DNA of 26,584 bases from contig CAZQEL010000002.1 of assembly GCA_964591795.1 (NCBI GenBank), positions 38,412-64,995 on the forward strand. Direction: 5' to 3'. Of the stretch, positions 6,429 to 25,981 are shown one piece after another. This stretch comes from an uncultured archaeon (GTDB taxonomy: Archaea > Iainarchaeota > Iainarchaeia > Iainarchaeales > CSSED10-239). A model generated the notes under the pieces. It did no database searches. It had not been told where the DNA came from and saw only the letters and a list, made by a program, of their open reading frames with translations. A program made the position numbers and the translations under genes. Each line of letters opens with the position of its first letter. The first letter of the stretch is position 1.

Positions 6429-8543
6429 TTATCTTTCTTTGTCTTTAAGTTCTAATTTTAAGATATCAAGATATCCTGTAATTTCGTTTTCCATTATTGG
6501 GTTTGATCTTACTATTTTAATTTTTTTAGTAAACATTGGCGCGTCTAAAACAATTGTTTCATATTCTCCGCCTTCACCAGCAACATTGATTCCTTTTTTT
6601 TTGTTTATGATGTTTAAATCATACATTACTTCTTTGGATAAATGTTTACCAACCCAACTTTCATCAAGTCCTAGTCCTGCTACTTTCACAATTACTGCAT
6701 CGAAGTTGTTGTTTAAAACTTCGTCTACCACTTTTTCTTGTGTTTTATTCCAAAGTGGAGCGAACATTTTAAGTTCAAGTTCAGTACAGATTTCTTGAAT
6801 TCTATCTCTTTGGTAGTTGCTTTTTATTGCACCTGTAATTATTCCTTGTAATGAATATTTAAGTTTTGATTTTAATAAAAGTTTTTTAAGATCCATTAGT
6901 TCTTTTTCTTTTATTCCTTTTGTTCTTTGTAGTACAAAAGGTATTTCTAATGACTCTGATTGTAAATATAAAATTTTATCATCAATTTTTTGAAACATAT
7001 ATGAATCCGGTGATTCTGTAATCATGGTCATAAGACAGGATATTTTATAGTTTTGTTTATGCATTATATGTAATGCGAGATTTGAATCTTTTCCACCAGA
7101 ATAAAGGCATCCTAAATTAAGATTTGTATCTTTTGATAATTTTTCTAAATAATCTGATTTGTTTTTGAATTTTTCTTCTTTTGAGATTTTTTCAATAATT
7201 TTATCAAAACCACTTCCATATTGTGCAGCAGTTTTCTTTCTATCAAAATCTTCTTTTAAAAGATTTATTTTTTCTCCAATTTGTCTTAAAATTATTTTAT
7301 TTTTACCATCTTTAATTTTGTCTAATTTATCAAGTTTAAATGATTCTTCAATTAGTTCTTTATCAAGATATGGAAGTCTAAGTTCTATGTTGTTATTCAT
7401 GCATACAACATCGTCTCTATAAAGATCATTTTCATGCATTTGGTATAATAGGTTGATTGTGTCTTTTAAAAGATTATTTGATTCTTTAAACTTATGATAT
7501 CCTGCAAAAAGCTCATCTGCCCCTAATCCTGAGAAAATAACCTTACATCCGTCTTTTCTAGCTTTCTTTGATGCGAAATATATGGGTAGTGCTACCCCTA
7601 TTTTGATAGGGTTAGATGATTCAATTAAATCTATAAGGTGGTTAATAGCCTTTTTTGTATCTATCTTATTAACTTCTATCTTCTTTATTTCAAAATGATA
7701 GGTCTTTTCTGTGTTTTCAACAGGGATTAGATCTTTTGGGTTTGTAATTTCCTTTGAATATGCAAAATATCCTGTAAATGGTATTTTGTTGTCTTTAAGT
7801 ATTTTTGCAATAATTAGAGAATCAATTCCAGCGCTATATAAAAGTCCAAGCTTAATTCCTTTTGGTACTCTTTTTAGAATTGAACTTTCTAATTTTTTGT
7901 AAATTTCATCAACAGATGTTTTTGTTTTTTTAATTTTATAAAAAGGTATATTTTTTAAAGTTAGTTTCTTTTTAGCAATATTATAGAAAAGTTCTTTACG
8001 AGGATCTAAAGAATTAATTTTTTCAAAACCCATTTCTTTTAGTGCTTTCTTTTCAGATGCAAATGCAAAGCTTTCTTTGTCAAATGTATACCATAATGGT
8101 TTAATTCCTAAAAGATCACGTCTTAGATAAAGTATATTTTTTTTAAGATAGCAAAAAGCATATGGACCTTGGAATTCATCAATTATTTTTAATCCTTTTT
8201 TTTCAAGTCCTTTCAAAATTAAATCAGCATCATTTTTTACTGATAGATTATATTTTTCAGAAATTTCTTTGTAATTATAGATTTCACAGTTAGTTATTAA
8301 TACTGAATTGTTATATTTAATTGGTTGTGGTGCGTTTTCTACTATTGAAAAAAGATTATGTGCAAGAACAATTCCATCTTCAATCTTTTCTTTTCTAAAG
8401 TCATCTATTCTTTTTGAAAATTTAATATTTCCATTAATATAAATACCGTTGTTATCAAGTCCACGTTTTTCTAAAATCTTAAGTCCTTTAATTATTTCTT
8501 TTTTACTATTAAACACATTTATAAGTCCAAGTATTGAGCACAT
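6429..8543 (-). CDS. Three-domain fusion: class-II glutamine amidotransferase + asparagine-synthetase-like PP-loop domain + Dph6-type diphthine-ammonia ligase (MJ0570-like) domain
   Basis: The start is set at MCSILG (Cys2 nucleophile of Ntn amidotransferases, ATG at 8543). AsnB blocks: NCEIYNY, RDLLGIKPLWY, FASEKKAL, LLYSAGIDS, FSGLGADELFAGY, IELRLPYLD, AAQYGSG. The C-terminal 230 aa carry CLYSGGKDS, ESPDSYMFQ, GIITGAI.SNYQRDRI, FAPLW, GLDESWVG and GINVAGEGGEYET, typical of diphthamide synthetase. No stop or frameshift separates the parts. Confidence 0.85.
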   Translation of the reverse strand: MCSILGLINVFNSKKEIIKGLKILEKRGLDNNGIYINGNIKFSKRIDDFRKEKIEDGIVLAHNLFSIVENAPQPIKYNNSVLITNCEIYNYKEISEKYNLSVKNDADLILKGLEKKGLKIIDEFQGPYAFCYLKKNILYLRRDLLGIKPLWYTFDKESFAFASEKKALKEMGFEKINSLDPRKELFYNIAKKKLTLKNIPFYKIKKTKTSVDEIYKKLESSILKRVPKGIKLGLLYSAGIDSLIIAKILKDNKIPFTGYFAYSKEITNPKDLIPVENTEKTYHFEIKKIEVNKIDTKKAINHLIDLIESSNPIKIGVALPIYFASKKARKDGCKVIFSGLGADELFAGYHKFKESNNLLKDTINLLYQMHENDLYRDDVVCMNNNIELRLPYLDKELIEESFKLDKLDKIKDGKNKIILRQIGEKINLLKEDFDRKKTAAQYGSGFDKIIEKISKEEKFKNKSDYLEKLSKDTNLNLGCLYSGGKDSNLALHIMHKQNYKISCLMTMITESPDSYMFQKIDDKILYLQSESLEIPFVLQRTKGIKEKELMDLKKLLLKSKLKYSLQGIITGAIKSNYQRDRIQEICTELELKMFAPLWNKTQEKVVDEVLNNNFDAVIVKVAGLGLDESWVGKHLSKEVMYDLNIINKKKGINVAGEGGEYETIVLDAPMFTKKIKIVRSNPIMENEITGYLDILKLELKDKER

Positions 8544-8786
8544 TTTTTTATTTTTCCCTTTTATTTTAAGTAATATATATTTATGGTTAAAACATCCTTT
8601 AAATGCTTTTATTTTTTTTAAAAGAATTAATATTGTATAATTTATTTTACTTAACAAACATGTTTAATTAGATTTGTTATGTTTACTTAATAATTACAAA
8701 TAAAAAGAAGATGCATATTATTAATAATTAGTAAATATAAGATAACCTTTTTAAATGTTTTCTGTCAATATTATTATAGTGGTTCC

Positions 8787-11959: not shown

Positions 11960-13894
11960 ATGAGTGAAAATAAATATTATCCATCAAAAGAGTTTTCTGA
12001 AAAAGCATATATTAAGTCAATGGAAGAATATGATAGAATTTATGTTGAGTCAATAAAAAATCCAGAAAAATTCTGGGGAGAAAAAGCACAGGATCTATCT
12101 TGGTTTAAGAAATGGGATTCTGTTTTTGAATGGCATGATATTGATCAACAACTATATTCTTGGTTTAAGAATGGAAAACTAAATGCCTCATATAATTGTC
12201 TTGATCGTCATTTAGAAAAAAATGGAGATAAGGTAGCTTTAATTTTTCAAGGTGAAGACGATTCTAATGTTAAAAAATATACTTATAAAGAACTTCATTT
12301 GGAAGTATCTAGATTTTCTAATGTTTTAAAGAAATATGGAATAAAAAAAGGTGATCGGGTATCTATTTACATGCCAATGATACCTGAGTTTTTAATTTCT
12401 CTTCTTGCTTGCGCTAGAATTGGTGCTATTCATTCAGTTATTTTTGCAGGATATAGTGTTTCAACTATAAAGGATAGATTAATTTTTGCAAAATCGAAAA
12501 TATTAATTACAGCTGATGGTGCTAATCGTGCTGGAAAAAAATTAAATTATAAAGTATCAATTGATGAAGCAATAGATGGTGTGGACTCTATTGAAAAAAT
12601 AATCTATGTTAAAAATATTAATTTAGATATAGATTATAAAAAAGATAAAGAACTTATTTATCATGAAGAAATTAAAAAAGAAGATATTTTAGATGAATGT
12701 GTTCCTGAACAAATGGATTCTGAAGATCCATTATTTATTTTATTTAATTCAGGAACTGTTGAAAAACCAAAAGGAACACTTCATACAACTGCTGGATATC
12801 TTTTATATGTAAATCAAACTTTCAAATATATGTTTGATTATCATGGTTCTGAAGTCTATTGGTCAACAGCTGATATTGGATGGATTACAGGGCATTCATA
12901 TTTAGTGTATGGTCCACTTTCAAATGCTGCAACTGTTTTAATGTATGAAGGTGTTCCAACTTATCCTGATAATAGTGTTTATTGGAGAATTATTCAAAAA
13001 CATAAAGTAAATATTTTTTATACAGCTCCAACAGTAATAAGATCTTTAATGAGATATGGTCTTGATCCTGTTAAGGACTTTGATTTATCTTCATTAAGAA
13101 TATTAGGGTCTGTTGGTGAGCCTATTAATCCTGAAGCATGGATTTGGTATTATGAAAATATTGGTAAAAACAATTGTCCCATAGTTGATACTTGGTGGCA
13201 AACAGAATCTGGTGGTTTTTTAATTTCGCCTTTTCCTGGTGCATTTCCATTAAAACCAGGTTATGCAACTAAACCTTTTTTTGGAATTGATGCTGATATT
13301 TTAAGAGAGGATGGGACAAAATCATCTGTTAATGAATCAGGGTCAGTTGTTATAAAAAAACCATGGCCAGGTATGATGAGAACAATTTATGGAGAACATC
13401 AAAAGTTTTTAGATATTTATTTTTCAAAATATAAACACATTTACTTTTGTGGAGATCGAGGAAAAATAGATGAAGATGGTTATTTTTTCATAATTGGAAG
13501 AATGGACGATGTTATTAAAGTATCAGGTCACAGAATTGGTTCAGCTGAAGTTGAATCAGCTTTAGTTTCTAATAAGAATGTTGGTGAAGCTGCAGTTGTG
13601 CCTTTTCCACATGATATTAAAGGACAAGCTCTATATGCTTTTGTTATTTTAAGAAATGGTATAGTTCCATCTGATGATTTAGTTATAGAACTAAGAGCGC
13701 ATGTTGCTAAGGAAATTGGTCCAATTGCAAAACCTGATAAAATACAATTTGTTGAAGCACTTCCGAAAACAAGTAGTGGAAAAATAATAAGAAGAATTGT
13801 TCGTGCCATTGCCTATGACTCTGAAGATTATGGTGATCTTTCAACTTTGTTTAATCCTAAAGTAATTGAACAAATAAAATGTAAAAAAATTTAA
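11960..13894 (+). CDS. acs: Acetyl-CoA synthetase (AMP-forming)
   Basis: 644 aa with YWSTADIGWITGHSY, WWQTESGG, GDRG..DEDGYFFIIGRMDDVIKVSGHRIG and LPKTSSGKIIRR (conserved catalytic/acetylatable Lys). Confidence 0.93.
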   Translation: MSENKYYPSKEFSEKAYIKSMEEYDRIYVESIKNPEKFWGEKAQDLSWFKKWDSVFEWHDIDQQLYSWFKNGKLNASYNCLDRHLEKNGDKVALIFQGEDDSNVKKYTYKELHLEVSRFSNVLKKYGIKKGDRVSIYMPMIPEFLISLLACARIGAIHSVIFAGYSVSTIKDRLIFAKSKILITADGANRAGKKLNYKVSIDEAIDGVDSIEKIIYVKNINLDIDYKKDKELIYHEEIKKEDILDECVPEQMDSEDPLFILFNSGTVEKPKGTLHTTAGYLLYVNQTFKYMFDYHGSEVYWSTADIGWITGHSYLVYGPLSNAATVLMYEGVPTYPDNSVYWRIIQKHKVNIFYTAPTVIRSLMRYGLDPVKDFDLSSLRILGSVGEPINPEAWIWYYENIGKNNCPIVDTWWQTESGGFLISPFPGAFPLKPGYATKPFFGIDADILREDGTKSSVNESGSVVIKKPWPGMMRTIYGEHQKFLDIYFSKYKHIYFCGDRGKIDEDGYFFIIGRMDDVIKVSGHRIGSAEVESALVSNKNVGEAAVVPFPHDIKGQALYAFVILRNGIVPSDDLVIELRAHVAKEIGPIAKPDKIQFVEALPKTSSGKIIRRIVRAIAYDSEDYGDLSTLFNPKVIEQIKCKKI

Positions 13895-15831
13895 GAAAAA
13901 GCTTTTTCAAGTTTTAAAAGAGTGTTCCATTCTTTATCAATATTTTCTTGAATCTTTTTTATTTCTTTTTTATTTTTTAAAATATCTTTAAACTTTGTTT
14001 GCATTTTTAAAAATTCTTCAATTGGTTTTCTATTTGTTGGTTTGTGATTAATTTTATATTTACTATCTTCACATTCATAGAGTGGCCAAAAGTTTGTTTC
14101 TGTTGCAAGTTTTGAAATATCAATTGTTAAATCTTCAGGTGCTTTCATGTTTGTTGGACAAGCTGCATAAACAATTATTACAGCTGGGCCTTTTTTCTCA
14201 AAAGCTTTTCTGAATTTTTCATGCATGTCTAAAATATTACCAGGGTTAGCTGTTGCAACATATGGTATATTATGTGCAATTGCTATTTTTGCTAAATCCT
14301 TTTTAATTCCAGGTTTCCCACCAGGGGTTGTTGTGGTTGTAGCGTCCATAGGTGTTGCTGATGATCTTTGAGAACCAGTATTTTGGTATCCTTCGTTATC
14401 ATAACACACAAAAACAAAATCATGTCCTCTTTCAAGAGCTCCAGAAAGACTCTGAAGTCCAATATCAAAACTATTCATATTAAGACTAATTCTACCATCT
14501 TTTTCAATTATCATTATATGGTTTTTTTTAAGTTCTGGGCAATATATTTTTCCATTATAATCATAGCTTGATATATTTTTTTTTCTTAAATTTGCAAGGT
14601 TGGTTGGTTTATAATCTGAAAAAGAAATTGCATATTCAAATCTATTTTTTCTTTTTCTTTCATCTAAATGTACTCTATATCCTAATTTTAATGCAATTTC
14701 AATAACATCATCTTTTAATATTGGTGAAATTGTACTATAAGAATATGCTGTAGAGTTTTTTCTTTTAATTACTGTTCCATCACCTTCAATTAAGGCATCT
14801 AATAATATTTTTAAATATTTATTTGATAATTCTTTAAATTCTAATGGTATGAATTTATCTTTTGCTTTTCCAAATTGAGTTAGGTAAGTCCATAATTGTT
14901 GATTACTTATAATAAATCTATCTGTAGAGTACCAATAATTAAATTTAATTTTATTTAAACAATTTGTAATGTTAGTTATTGTTTTTTTCTTTGTTTGAGC
15001 TATAAACGTATTATATTTTTCTCTTTTTTTGGATTTTTTAGATAAGTGTCCTTCAGAAATCCAATATCCTAAAAAAGATAACCAATTTTTCATTTTTATT
15101 TTATTTAATATAACTTTGTTTCCTGAAATTTTATTATATTTTACAGATGGTAATGTAAAATATTGTTGATCTTTTCCATCCCATTTTAAATTTCCAGTTA
15201 TAATATTTATTTTATCACTTCTGCTATAATTTAAAAGTTTATGTGCTTTTATCACTTCAACTTTATTATTTAATTTATTGTATACTGGCACATTATGTAA
15301 TAATGACACATCAAAATGAACAAAATTATGATTAACGGATACGATTTTATTTTTATAGTTATATTTATGCATTTTAACTATTGTTGATTTTTCCATTTTC
15401 ATATTTTTAGGGTTTATTGACCAAATAATGTCTTTTGTATTAATATTTTCAACATTTTTAAAACCATTTTGTGTTAATATTTTTGTTCCAGGAATATAAC
15501 ATCCACCATCTCCTGCAAAAGCCATGAATTTAATTTCTTCTTTTATTTTATTTTTTCTTTTTAAAACTTTATATGCTGTTTCTACTCCAGAGATTGTTGC
15601 AGCTGCATTTGCAAATACAGAGTGTATCCATGGTTCGTTCCAGGATGTATAAGGGTAAATTGTAGTTGTTACTTCTGCACATGATGTTGCTGATGAAACT
15701 ACAATTTTTTTATCGGTTGCAGCATAAGCTGTTCTTAAAATTATAGTAATAGGGCATCCTGGACAAGTCCTATGGCCAGGCATAATTGCTTTTCTATCAT
15801 TTATTTTTTTTGCAAGTTCAATATTATTCAT
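13891..15831 (-). CDS. porB: Pyruvate/2-oxoacid:ferredoxin oxidoreductase beta (TPP-binding) subunit, interrupted by a 343-aa intein
   Basis: The N-extein has HRTCPGCP and ends FAGDGG. The C-extein resumes SFDIGLQSLSGALERGHDFVFVCYDNEGYQNTGSQRS, completing the GDG...N TPP motif. The spliced length would be 303 aa, normal for PorB. Confidence 0.9.
   Translation of the reverse strand: MNNIELAKKINDRKAIMPGHRTCPGCPITIILRTAYAATDKKIVVSSATSCAEVTTTIYPYTSWNEPWIHSVFANAAATISGVETAYKVLKRKNKIKEEIKFMAFAGDGGCYIPGTKILTQNGFKNVENINTKDIIWSINPKNMKMEKSTIVKMHKYNYKNKIVSVNHNFVHFDVSLLHNVPVYNKLNNKVEVIKAHKLLNYSRSDKINIITGNLKWDGKDQQYFTLPSVKYNKISGNKVILNKIKMKNWLSFLGYWISEGHLSKKSKKREKYNTFIAQTKKKTITNITNCLNKIKFNYWYSTDRFIISNQQLWTYLTQFGKAKDKFIPLEFKELSNKYLKILLDALIEGDGTVIKRKNSTAYSYSTISPILKDDVIEIALKLGYRVHLDERKRKNRFEYAISFSDYKPTNLANLRKKNISSYDYNGKIYCPELKKNHIMIIEKDGRISLNMNSFDIGLQSLSGALERGHDFVFVCYDNEGYQNTGSQRSSATPMDATTTTTPGGKPGIKKDLAKIAIAHNIPYVATANPGNILDMHEKFRKAFEKKGPAVIIVYAACPTNMKAPEDLTIDISKLATETNFWPLYECEDSKYKINHKPTNRKPIEEFLKMQTKFKDILKNKKEIKKIQENIDKEWNTLLKLEKAFS
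14473..15501 (-). mobile_element. Intein with LAGLIDADG homing-endonuclease domain inside porB
   Basis: It starts with Cys (CYIPGTKILT, block A) and has a block-B-like SLLH. Two LAGLIDADG motifs are present (LSFLGYWISEGH, LLDALIEGDGT). Block F/G is IYCPELKKNHIMIIEKDGRISLNMN, with terminal Asn and +1 Ser. The penultimate residue is Met rather than the usual His. Confidence 0.85.
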
Positions 15832-17821: not shown

Positions 17822-18373
17822 CTATAAAATAATTATTTTTTTTAAATATTTTATTAATTCATTAAAAAAAGCATATATTTCTGGAATGTTTATAAAATAA
17901 TGTTCTTTATACTTTCTTAATTTTTCTTCAGTCCATTTTTGATCATGCCATTGTTCTTTATAATCTAAAACGTGAATTACTGGTTCTAAGGCATCTATAG
18001 CTTTTGCAAACTTACTTTCTATTGTTTTTTGTTCTTTAAATTCATTATAATATTTTTTATATTCTTCTTTTAACTCATCTGGTATTTTATTAATTAATAT
18101 TTCATAGGCTTTATCTTCAAGCATTTCTCTTTTATGGTTATCAACTATTTTATAGTGATCTTTTGAAATTATTTCAACTAGATCGTGATATGCTAATAAT
18201 TTTAATACCTGTAATTAATTGATAGGTTCTGTTATTTTTTTAAGAAAATATTTTGCGATTATGATTGTTGCCCATGAGTGTTCAGCTGAAGATTCTTTTC
18301 TGTTTTTTACTGTTGAATATCTTTCTACTTCTTTTAACTTTAATAAAAGTCTTATTTGATCTAAATTTTTCAT
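17822..18373 (-). pseudogene. HD-domain (YfbR/HD_3-like) phosphohydrolase with a single in-frame TAA
   Basis: The ATG at 18373 overlaps the porD TGA (ATGA). It reads MKNLDQIR...RKESSAEHSWATIIIAKYFLKKITEPIN-TAA(18215-18217)-LQVLKLLAYHDLVEI...MLEDKAY..., continuing in the same frame into the 17822..18124 ORF (AKAIDALEPVIH...). The HD dyad lies after the stop, and no canonical restart codon precedes it. Confidence 0.8.
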
Positions 18374-24602: not shown

Positions 24603-24710
24603 TTAAATTAGCAATTAAAATGTAAAATTTTAAAATTATGATAAGAAAGAAATCTTTTGTAAATATAATTATTATAAATTATATAAAAGGATTAAAAGGT
24701 GGGAAAATTA

Positions 24711-25358
24711 ATGATATTAAATTATAAATATAAAAATTTAATTTTTAATACTTGTTTTATGAATGCTTCTGGACCATTATGTTCTACCTATGAAGTACTT
24801 TCTGAAATTGGTAAATCTAATTCTGGAGCTGTTGTTTTAAAGTCAGCAACAATTGAGCCAAGAGATGGGAATCCTGGTCCACGTTATTTTGAAAATAATT
24901 TGATTTCTATTAATTCTATGGGTCTTCCAAACCCAGGTTATAAAAAACTGATTGAAATTATTCCAAAATTAAAGGAATTTAATAAACCAATTATTGCAAG
25001 TATATCTGGTTTTTCAAAAGAAGATTATTTAGAAATGGTTAGAGAGTTTGATTCTAAAGGTGCAGATATTTTAGAAATAAATTTATCTTGTCCAAATATA
25101 GTTGGTAAACCACAGGCTGGTTATAATTTTGAATATTCAAAAGAAGTTTTAGAAGCAGTAAGAAAAATAACAACTAAACCAATTGCAGTTAAATTACCAC
25201 CATATTTAGATTTAGTACATCAAAAACAAATTGCTGAAATACTAATAAATGCAAAAGTTGATTTTGCGGTTCTTATTAACTCTGTAGGTAATTGTTTAGT
25301 TATTTCTTGCATAATTTCAATGGTAGGATTATTTTTTAATACATTTGATATTCCATAA
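24711..25358 (+). pseudogene. pyrD: Dihydroorotate dehydrogenase (class 1), 3'-truncated; homology ends near 25289-25292
   Basis: AAGGTG at 24696-24701 precedes the ATG at 24711. DHODH blocks run through NASGP, VLKSAT, NSMGLPNPG, ASISG, EINLSCPN, AVKLPPY and VLINSVGN. The frame then enters the antisense of a tandem repeat (CLVISCIISMVGLFFNTFDIP-stop). The C-terminal third, roughly 100 aa by comparison with typical class 1 enzymes, is missing. Confidence 0.8.
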
Positions 25359-25981
25359 TATAAAAAACCGGTTTTATATGGTGATTCAACTTTTGCCAAT
25401 TGTTTAGTTATTTCTTGCATATATATTTTAAAATGTTCAATAGTAGGATTGTTTTTAAATATATTTGATATTCCATAATATAAAAAATCAGTTTTATATG
25501 GTGATTCAACTTTTGCCAATTGTTTAGTTATTTCTTGCATAATTTCAATGGTAGGATTATTTTTTAATATACTTGTAACTCCAAATTTTAAAAAATCTGA
25601 TTTAGGTTGTGATTTAAATTTATCTAATTGTTTATTTATTTCTGCTAATATCTCTATATTTTCAACAACAATATGATTATTATTTAAAAACCATTTTTTT
25701 AATATGTCTAGTTTTTCCAGATCATATTTTGGTTTAGAATTTGTTTTTATAAGTTCTTTAGGAATCTTCTTTTTTACTTTAAAAGATTCATTTTTTATTT
25801 TTTCACTATTTATTATGATTTTTTTAAAATGTGTATTTTTTTTAGGGTTTGCAATGTTTCCTGTTGTTGCTTCTAATTTAACTTCTTGTTTTTTTATATA
25901 ATCTATATACTGTAATTTTCCATCTGTATATTCTTTTATTTTTTCAACAATATTTTTATTTTTAATTATTACCATAGGCAA
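25220..25981 (-). CDS. Tandem-repeat protein of unknown function (36/40-aa repeats), probably a truncated or decaying gene
   Basis: Repeat units read MQEITKQLAKVESPYKT(D/G)FLYYGISN(I/V)(F/L)KNNPTIE. The last 23 residues are antisense pyrD sequence. The frame stays open upstream to a TAA at 26174-26176 with no canonical start other than the TTG at 25981. Confidence 0.55.
   Translation of the reverse strand: MPMVIIKNKNIVEKIKEYTDGKLQYIDYIKKQEVKLEATTGNIANPKKNTHFKKIIINSEKIKNESFKVKKKIPKELIKTNSKPKYDLEKLDILKKWFLNNNHIVVENIEILAEINKQLDKFKSQPKSDFLKFGVTSILKNNPTIEIMQEITKQLAKVESPYKTDFLYYGISNIFKNNPTIEHFKIYMQEITKQLAKVESPYKTGFLYYGISNVLKNNPTIEIMQEITKQLPTELIRTAKSTFAFISISAICF
25290..25650. repeat. Tandem DNA repeat, units of 108, 120 and 108 bp plus a degenerate partial unit
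   Basis: aattgtttagttatttcttgcat recurs at 25290, 25398 and 25518, with a degenerate copy at 25626. Units A and B share a long identical 3' half. Unit B has a 12-bp insertion and unit C diverges in its second half. Confidence 0.85.

Follow-up and report, generated by a model that had tools for sequence, protein, structure and literature searches.

A fused class-II amidotransferase, AsnB-like and Dph6 protein in an uncultured Iainarchaeales archaeon: domain features, distribution and a possible route to diphthine amidation

Introduction

Elongation factor 2 (EF-2) carries a conserved diphthamide modification in most archaea and in eukaryotes; some archaeal lineages have lost the dph genes. For the last step of its formation, in which Dph6 performs the amidation, free ammonium is thought to be required. 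This study concerns a 26,584-nucleotide (nt) stretch of DNA from an uncultured archaeon of the Iainarchaeales (assembly GCA_964591795.1, contig CAZQEL010000002.1, positions 38,412 to 64,995 of the forward strand; hereafter the window), in which a single gene encodes, from N- to C-terminus, an N-terminal nucleophile (Ntn) class-II glutamine amidotransferase (GATase) domain, a PP-loop domain resembling that of asparagine synthetase B (AsnB), and a Dph6-type diphthine-ammonia ligase domain.

A preliminary description of the window was aware of no earlier account of this architecture. The architecture had in fact been published in 2012 with the same hypothesis: a COG0367/AsnB module N-terminal to DUF71 was reported for Methanohalophilus mahii, Methanosalsum zhilinae and Ca. 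Nanosalinarum, the module was split into GAT-II and an Asn_synthase PP-loop domain, and glutamine-derived ammonia was proposed to serve the amidation of diphthine (de Crécy-Lagard et al. 2012, Biol Direct 7:32, PMC3541065). In the same publication, reviewer L. Aravind asked explicitly whether the ammonia is consumed by the one or the other PP-loop domain. Literature searches found no papers on the fusion after 2012. The window gene is a member of this known archaeal GAT-II/AsnB-like/DUF71 fusion family. The architecture is thus known, and abundant in databases, and the remaining interest lies in its mechanism, with the family as a natural test case for one GATase serving two PP-loop sites, the question raised in 2012. 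What appears to be new here is that the AsnB-like half is not an asparagine synthetase, that its PP-loop is apparently needed independently of the GATase, and that the GATase/AsnB-like module also exists unfused.

The fusion gene and its reading frame

In the open reading frame (ORF) list of the window, the minus-strand frame that holds the fusion gene is unbroken over 6429..8657 and opens at a TTG codon. The ATG at 8543, from which the product begins MCSILG, is the functional start rather than the upstream TTG, because class-II GATases need a Cys right after the Met and the homologs begin with MC; in class-II (Ntn) amidotransferases, the Cys following the initiator Met acts as the nucleophile. 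The coordinates of the gene and its parts are collected in Table 1. The preliminary description had read one uninterrupted frame over this gene, which was borne out; the motifs that it quoted (SAGIDS, GADELFAGY, AAQYGSG, SGGKDS and EGGEYET) were all located at the expected coordinates, far beyond chance, and its domain assignments proved correct in hidden Markov model (HMM) searches, where GATase, Asn_synthase and Diphthami_syn_2 were all matched. The protein is already deposited: among 5.8 billion proteins searched, an NCBI/ENA entry (P0001) is identical to it.

A fusion of this kind could conceivably be an artefact, i.e., an asnB-like gene and a dph6 gene joined through an error in sequencing or assembly within the linker, or could owe its C-terminal part to the DUF71-B12 subfamily rather than to Dph6. 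The probability of either is negligible, and nothing was found in favour of them. No stop or frame change was found in the linker in the window sequence, and a reading as two adjacent genes is not supported. Merging is ruled out by the continuous ORF, by hundreds of single-ORF homologs and by the conserved linker, which is helical at high confidence. The same architecture recurs in hundreds of independent assemblies, including that of the cultured Methanolobus bombayensis DSM 7082, which carries a single-ORF fusion, and the signature motif of the C-terminal domain reads EGGEYE, not ENGE(F/Y)H.

Table 1. Coordinates of the fusion gene, its domains and motifs, and further features of the window (positions in nt of the window; aa, amino acids)
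Feature	Position	Strand	Residues	Basis or remarks
GATase/AsnB-like/Dph6 fusion gene	6429..8543	-		704 aa; stop codon 6429-6431; ORF list, Pfam, NCBIfam
Ntn class-II GATase domain	7929..8543	-	1-205	Pfam GATase_7, GATase_6; fold
Cys2, N-terminal nucleophile after Met1 removal	8538..8540	-	2	kept in 117/119 homologs
Leu64 at AsnB Arg49 (human Arg48) position	8352..8354	-	64	alignment to 1ct9
AsnB-like PP-loop (synthetase-type) domain	7209..7928	-	206-445	Pfam Asn_synthase, 1ct9 alignment, fold
PP-loop 1, SAGIDS (family consensus SGGxDS)	7818..7835	-		S, G, D, S kept in 79/79 genome homologs
SGLG motif, Leu340 at E. coli AsnB Glu348 (human Glu364) position	7521..7532	-		alignment to 1ct9
KTAAQYGS, Lys437 = essential AsnB Lys449 (human Lys466)	7212..7235	-		alignment, conservation
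Linker, two predicted helices	7119..7208	-	446-475	AlphaFold: H446-456, H462-469; pLDDT (predicted local distance difference test) block means 87-94
Dph6 (diphthine-ammonia ligase, DUF71) domain	6432..7118	-	476-704	PF01902, TIGR03679, PF0828 match, fold
PP-loop 2, SGGKDS	7083..7100	-	482-487	S, G, K, D kept in 79/79 genome homologs
EGGEYE, Dph6-subfamily signature	6558..6575	-	657-662	E662 = PF0828 E188; invariant in family
2-oxoacid:ferredoxin oxidoreductase beta subunit ORF	13891..15831	-		646 aa
HD_3/YfbR-like ORF	17822..18124	-		100 aa
Segment upstream of the HD_3/YfbR-like ORF	18127..18372	-		14 stops in the one minus-strand frame read
Dihydroorotate-dehydrogenase-like ORF	24699..25358	+		219 aa
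ORF overlapping the 3' end of the preceding ORF	25220..25981	-		253 aa; no Pfam match

The Dph6 domain

The assignment of the C-terminal domain to the Dph6-type diphthine-ammonia ligases is strong. It matches Diphthami_syn_2 (PF01902) over aa 479-697 (E 1e-59, 201.9 bits versus a cutoff of 23.2), TIGR03679 (Dph6_archaeal) with 239.1 bits, i.e., over the curated cutoff of 197.3, and PF0828 in an alignment (E 8e-49), and in Foldseek it superposes on PF0828 and PH1257 with template modelling (TM) scores of 0.93-0.97. The motif EGG(E/D)xE188 marks Dph6, whereas the DUF71-B12 subfamily has ENGE(F/Y)H instead (PMC3541065), and mutational data support a functional requirement for the signature motif in yeast Dph6 (PMC3585130). 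DUF71-B12 and other PP-loop families were excluded for this domain by EGGEYE and by the Pfam and TIGR03679 matches, in agreement with the preliminary description. The modelled EF-2/diphthine interface of PF0828, made up of S44, Y45, E78, Y103, Q104, A149, E183 and E186, corresponds to S514, Y515, E548, Y577, Q578, G623, E657 and E660 in the fusion, and the mapped positions are conserved or invariant except for 623, which holds a small residue. Judged from these features, the domain is expected to adenylate the diphthine carboxylate on EF-2, converting the carboxylate to an amide.

Compared with the standalone archaeal Dph6 proteins PF0828 (PDB 3RJZ/3RK0/3RK1) and PH1257 (PDB 2D13), the domain is ~39% identical to PF0828 in the fold alignment and has the SGGKDS PP-loop, EGGExE and the predicted EF-2-interface residues all present, but it sits C-terminal to a 470-aa amidotransferase module and has Gln518 where PF0828 has His48. 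Yeast/eukaryotic Dph6 (YLR143W) likewise combines a DUF71 catalytic domain carrying EGG(D/E)xE with an attached module proposed to make ammonia; that module, however, consists of two YjgF/RidA domains of another fold, placed on the opposite (C-terminal) side, and would work by imine deaminase chemistry. As M. mahii and M. zhilinae have just one DUF71 homolog each (supplementary table in PMC3541065), the fusion is the sole Dph6 in these two complete genomes.

The GATase domain

The N-terminal domain was matched by GATase_7 over aa 68-169 (E 1e-19), and by GATase_7 and GATase_6 together over aa 49-169. Cys2, Arg27-Gly28, Asn85, Glu87 and Asp105 are conserved and equivalent to AsnB Cys1, Arg30, Asn74, Glu76 and Asp98, with the oxyanion residue Asn85 and the alpha-amino ligands Glu87 and Asp105 invariant or nearly so. 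On the basis of these conserved active-site residues, the GATase is predicted to be catalytically intact. At the AsnB Arg49 position, Leu64 is invariant in the 119-sequence alignment A1 (119/119), and 69 of the 79 genome homologs have Leu as well. In asparagine synthetases, this Arg (human Arg48) binds the alpha-carboxylate of glutamine (PMC6748925).

The AsnB-like domain

The middle domain was matched by Asn_synthase over aa 214-357 and a second stretch (E 2e-32). Its PP-loop 1, in which Ala238 of the window copy is a minor departure from the family consensus, is accompanied by Lys416 (= AsnB Lys429), found in 79/79 genome homologs, and by Lys437 (= Lys449), found in 76/79. These features might indicate a bifunctional protein whose N-terminal half is an ordinary AsnB that makes asparagine from aspartate and is merely fused to Dph6: the best HMMs for this half are AsnB families (TIGR01536 asn_synth_AEB, 240.9 bits; PRK09431, 208 bits), the nearest structures are the E. 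coli and human asparagine synthetases, and some members have been named asparagine synthase by the Joint Genome Institute (JGI). Such a bifunctional asparagine synthetase is nevertheless very improbable. The TIGR01536 score is under the cutoff of 267.1 (that for PRK09431 compares with a cutoff of 499), and the AsnB Glu348 position is Leu, Ser or Gln, never Glu, in the 79 genome homologs and in 89 representatives. All asparagine synthetases have this Glu (Glu364 in the human enzyme), and the human variants E364A and E364Q show no activity (PMC6748925).

In comparison with E. coli AsnB (PDB 1CT9) and human ASNS (PDB 6GQ3), the fusion has the two-domain fold and orientation (TM 0.80), the Cys1 nucleophile, Asn74, Glu76, Asp98, the PP-loop, Lys429 and Lys449 in common, and it differs in the replacement of Arg49 by Leu, Gly75 by Cys (Cys86), Glu348 by Leu and Ile143 by Lys (Lys148), as well as in the loss of the last ~100 residues of AsnB in the alignment to 1ct9. 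Because Glu348 is absent, Arg49 is Leu, TIGR01536 stays below its cutoff and the C-terminal ~100 residues are gone, the N-terminal half is, by these sequence tests, not an asparagine synthetase, AsnB-like though it is in fold and ATP site. Of the asparagine-synthetase-type half put forward in the preliminary description, the domain type, the PP-loop and the lysines thus hold, whereas a bona fide AsnB does not. The AsnB-like half should not be taken for an asparagine synthetase. The protein can be recognised correctly as Dph6, but the automatic names “diphthine--ammonia ligase” and “asparagine synthase” each cover only part of the fusion.

Linker and predicted structure

An AlphaFold2 run on the fusion with alignment A1 gave a model with a mean pLDDT of 93.5 and a predicted TM score (pTM) of 0.91. 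Since this pTM was reached for a 704-residue chain, we infer that the three domains are confidently placed as one compact rigid body in the model. The linker residues D447, K462, L466 and N474 are conserved. In Foldseek, the GATase and AsnB-like domains superpose jointly on E. coli AsnB 1CT9 (target TM 0.80-0.81, root-mean-square deviation 2.7-3.3 Å), and the orientation of the GATase towards the synthetase-type domain is therefore canonical.

Distribution and variants of the fusion

The same fusion, sought in other genomes as the preliminary description had advised, turned out to be widespread. The protein search that had turned up the identical entry also gave more than 118 full-length homologs (~660-735 aa, 42-72% identity, the same three Pfam domains), mainly from Woesearchaeota, Nanoarchaeota and Iainarchaeota/Diapherotrites, and usually named “diphthine--ammonia ligase” by NCBI. 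With each GTDB species represented by one genome, relatives were detected in at least 573 archaeal species genomes, and nearly all of the 80 relatives examined are single-ORF fusions; the genomes with relatives include those of Nanohaloarchaea, Altiarchaeota, Methanosarcinales, Methanomethylovorans, some metagenome-assembled genomes (MAGs) of Halobacteria, and Syntrophoarchaeum. The fusion is real and, judging by residue conservation, all three of its domains are under strong purifying selection. With the fusions of 2012, the window protein shares the order of GAT-II, Asn_synthase PP-loop and DUF71 in one polypeptide and the same proposed role, and relatives at 38-45% identity are present in Methanolobus, Methanomethylovorans and Nanohaloarchaea alongside the DPANN lineages. 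The window copy differs in that it comes from a low-GC, DPANN-type archaeon (the GC content of the window is ~26%) and has Ala238 in PP-loop 1 and Phe65 in place of the family-consensus His.

Several variants depart from the complete architecture in their GATase. In a small clade from Methanosarcinales, Halobacteria and Syntrophoarchaeum MAGs (L064, L074, L076, L077 and L078), the GATase is degenerate: the Cys is replaced by Tyr, Gly, Thr or Ser (it is kept only in L064), Asp98 by Ser, and Asn74 by Asp (a position missing from the L078 alignment), and both PP-loops are kept. Other proteins consist of Asn_synthase and Dph6 domains without a GATase; these are complete internal genes (L080, P0230, P0245, P0259, P0264 and P0265), again with both PP-loops intact. 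L067 and L068 also belong to the variants with a degenerate or no GATase in which both PP-loops are kept. No separate GATase gene lies beside the GATase-less variant at the two contigs inspected (P0230 and P0259), and a GATase-Dph6 protein without the AsnB-like domain in the middle was not seen among the family variants.

The reverse arrangement, a GATase/AsnB-like module without Dph6, is common. Of the best 150 representatives in an exhaustive HMMER search with the N-terminal half, 147 were new; 52 of these are three-domain proteins and 86 have the GATase and AsnB-like domains only. Many of the latter stop at the same linker helix (..DYLxxL) as the fusion junction, which makes random truncation unlikely for the two-domain forms. 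Standalone genes of this type (L081-L085, L087 and L088; P0271, P0275, P0128, P0129, P0270 and P0162) are in some cases annotated “asparagine synthetase B”. No dph6 lies next to the standalone gene, as a split pair would have it, in 6/6 loci inspected, which lie on longer contigs and where all six genes are complete. Glu348 is absent from the standalone forms too, and the Arg49 position is Leu in 41/56 subfamily-wide; among the six inspected proteins, five have Leu and the sixth has Arg. By similarity, standalone (S) and fused (F) forms are interleaved, with identities of 40% (F-F), 37% (S-S) and 37% (F-S).

Two further proteins carry additional sequence at the N-terminus. At L021 (40-3153; from a MAG of the Woesearchaeota), the reading frame of the upstream DRG-family GTPase continues into the fusion, giving a 1037-aa ORF, and the join deletes the first ~17 GATase residues including the Cys nucleophile. 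In P0141 (1005 aa), an SMC-like N-terminus is joined at about the same point. Both joins are probably deletions or chimeric assemblies.

Possible mechanism of the fusion protein

The favoured reading, held with slightly better than even confidence, is that Dph6 is supplied with nitrogen by the attached Ntn amidotransferase and that the middle domain has an ATP-dependent role. The Cys2 amidohydrolase would free ammonia from glutamine or a closely related amide donor; the ammonia would reach the Dph6 site within the chain, either passing through the AsnB-like domain or running alongside it; and diphthamide could then form without free ammonium. For the AsnB-like PP-loop domain, ATP-dependent work of its own is probable: it might gate or couple the release of ammonia, or carry out a further adenylation. 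A passive spacer is an unlikely role for it. The amidohydrolase is a likely nitrogen source because it is predicted to be intact, is rigidly attached, has been selected across hundreds of species and belongs to the sole Dph6 of complete genomes.

Several points weigh against this reading. First, PP-loop 1 of the AsnB-like domain and its two lysines (Lys416 and Lys437) do not vary even in proteins with a degenerate GATase (the clade L064, L074, L076-L078) or with none (the six GATase-less genes listed above), which argues for a middle domain that is more than an ammonia conduit. Second, GATase/AsnB-like genes of the same subfamily stand alone, with dph6 not adjacent at any of the six loci. Third, the ammonia tunnel of AsnB reaches no further than the AsnB-type PP-loop site, and its extension to the Dph6 site is hypothetical. 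Fourth, the carboxylate-anchoring Arg is Leu family-wide, which makes donor binding, and possibly the identity of the donor, uncertain. The channelled, glutamine-derived ammonia of the preliminary description thus keeps its place as the most economical reading, but a pure feeder leaves both the invariance of the PP-loop after GATase loss and the unlinked standalone modules unexplained. The middle domain may be read in two ways, namely, as an ATP-dependent relay or gate that Dph6 needs in order to use amide nitrogen, or as an independent amidoligase acting on a substrate other than aspartate.

Under the second of these, two amidoligases would share one chain: the GATase/AsnB-like half, as a self-contained glutamine-dependent amidotransferase, would adenylate and amidate a non-aspartate carboxylate of its own, Dph6 would use free or leaked ammonia, and the two would be fused because they have a target in common (e.g., the translation apparatus or EF-2) or are co-regulated, rather than to form a dedicated channel. 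The conservation of the AsnB-like SGGxDS and of both lysines, their retention in the GATase-less and degenerate-GATase variants, the complete standalone genes unlinked to dph6, the interleaving of standalone and fused forms, and a domain orientation as in AsnB, where ammonia goes to the AsnB-type site, are all consistent with this alternative. On the other hand, no candidate second substrate is known, archaeal EF-2 being without a second known amidation; a conserved gene neighbourhood pointing to a pathway was not found; and the compact, confident three-domain model and the conserved linker favour cooperation over mere co-expression. Overall, two independent amidoligases are considered possible but rather doubtful.

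A related and still more tentative proposal is that the AsnB-like domain represents a distinct archaeal amidoligase subfamily with its own ATP-dependent reaction, which could be either a second translation-linked amidation or an ATP-gated relay obligatory for Dph6. The subfamily is marked by the missing Glu348 and Arg49 and by the motif KxAAQYGS, and it is found in three forms, i.e., standalone, Dph6-fused, and Dph6-fused without GATase. If this were true, the fusion would mark an undiscovered step tied to diphthamide formation. If the favoured built-in amidotransferase is correct, many genome-reduced DPANN archaea and some methanogens would secure the nitrogen for this modification internally.

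Genomic neighbourhood and other features of the window

The neighbours of the fusion gene in the window are ordinary archaeal housekeeping genes. Among their products are aIF2-beta, aIF1A, a Rio kinase and a KH protein. A gene for a DUF4405 membrane protein points towards the fusion gene (convergent), whereas the genes for topoisomerase VI B and A are in divergent orientation. Other genes encode acetyl-CoA synthetase, subunits of 2-oxoacid:ferredoxin oxidoreductase, a cysteine desulfurase, an ArsR regulator, a Mre11-like phosphoesterase and tRNA-Cys. No dph2, dph5, EF-2, second Dph6/DUF71 or asnB gene is located within the 26.6-kb window.

When the ORFs of the 80 related loci were clustered, no dph genes were found near the fusion at any of them, and the synteny observed was at lineage level only. 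Its partners include a DRG GTPase, a prefoldin-like protein, peptidases, a cytidylyltransferase and RNase HII, and RNA polymerase B in Nanohaloarchaea. Extra members of the fusion cluster, which could have been taken for a second AsnB or Dph6, were actually PurF and DRG, drawn in by single linkage. A 365-aa DRG/Obg-type translation-associated GTPase is recurrent upstream of the fusion, at times directly adjacent (L003, L006, L008-L010, L012, L014-L017, L019, L020, L023, L036 and L069), and a cytidylyltransferase-like gene product of ~138 aa is often encoded directly abutting the 3' end of the fusion. This pattern is a synteny of the Woesearchaeota/Nanoarchaeota lineage and is absent from the present window.

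Three other ORFs of the window (Table 1) have unusual lengths or ends. The thiamine pyrophosphate (TPP)-binding beta subunit of the 2-oxoacid:ferredoxin oxidoreductase is about twice the normal length and has a LAGLIDADG match at aa 343-400. The extra sequence begins after the TPP motif (..FAGDGG/CYIPGTKILT..) and ends at ..ISLNMN/SFDIG.. (slashes mark the boundaries), and it resembles an intein that contains a homing endonuclease and is inserted at the GDGG site. The HD_3/YfbR-like phosphohydrolase ORF matches profile positions 82-155 of 165, i.e., the C-terminal half only, and may be a truncated or decayed gene between the oxidoreductase subunit genes. Lastly, the dihydroorotate-dehydrogenase-like ORF covers profile positions 2-201 of 291 and overlaps an opposite-strand ORF at its 3' end; it may be a truncated gene or have a mis-called end.

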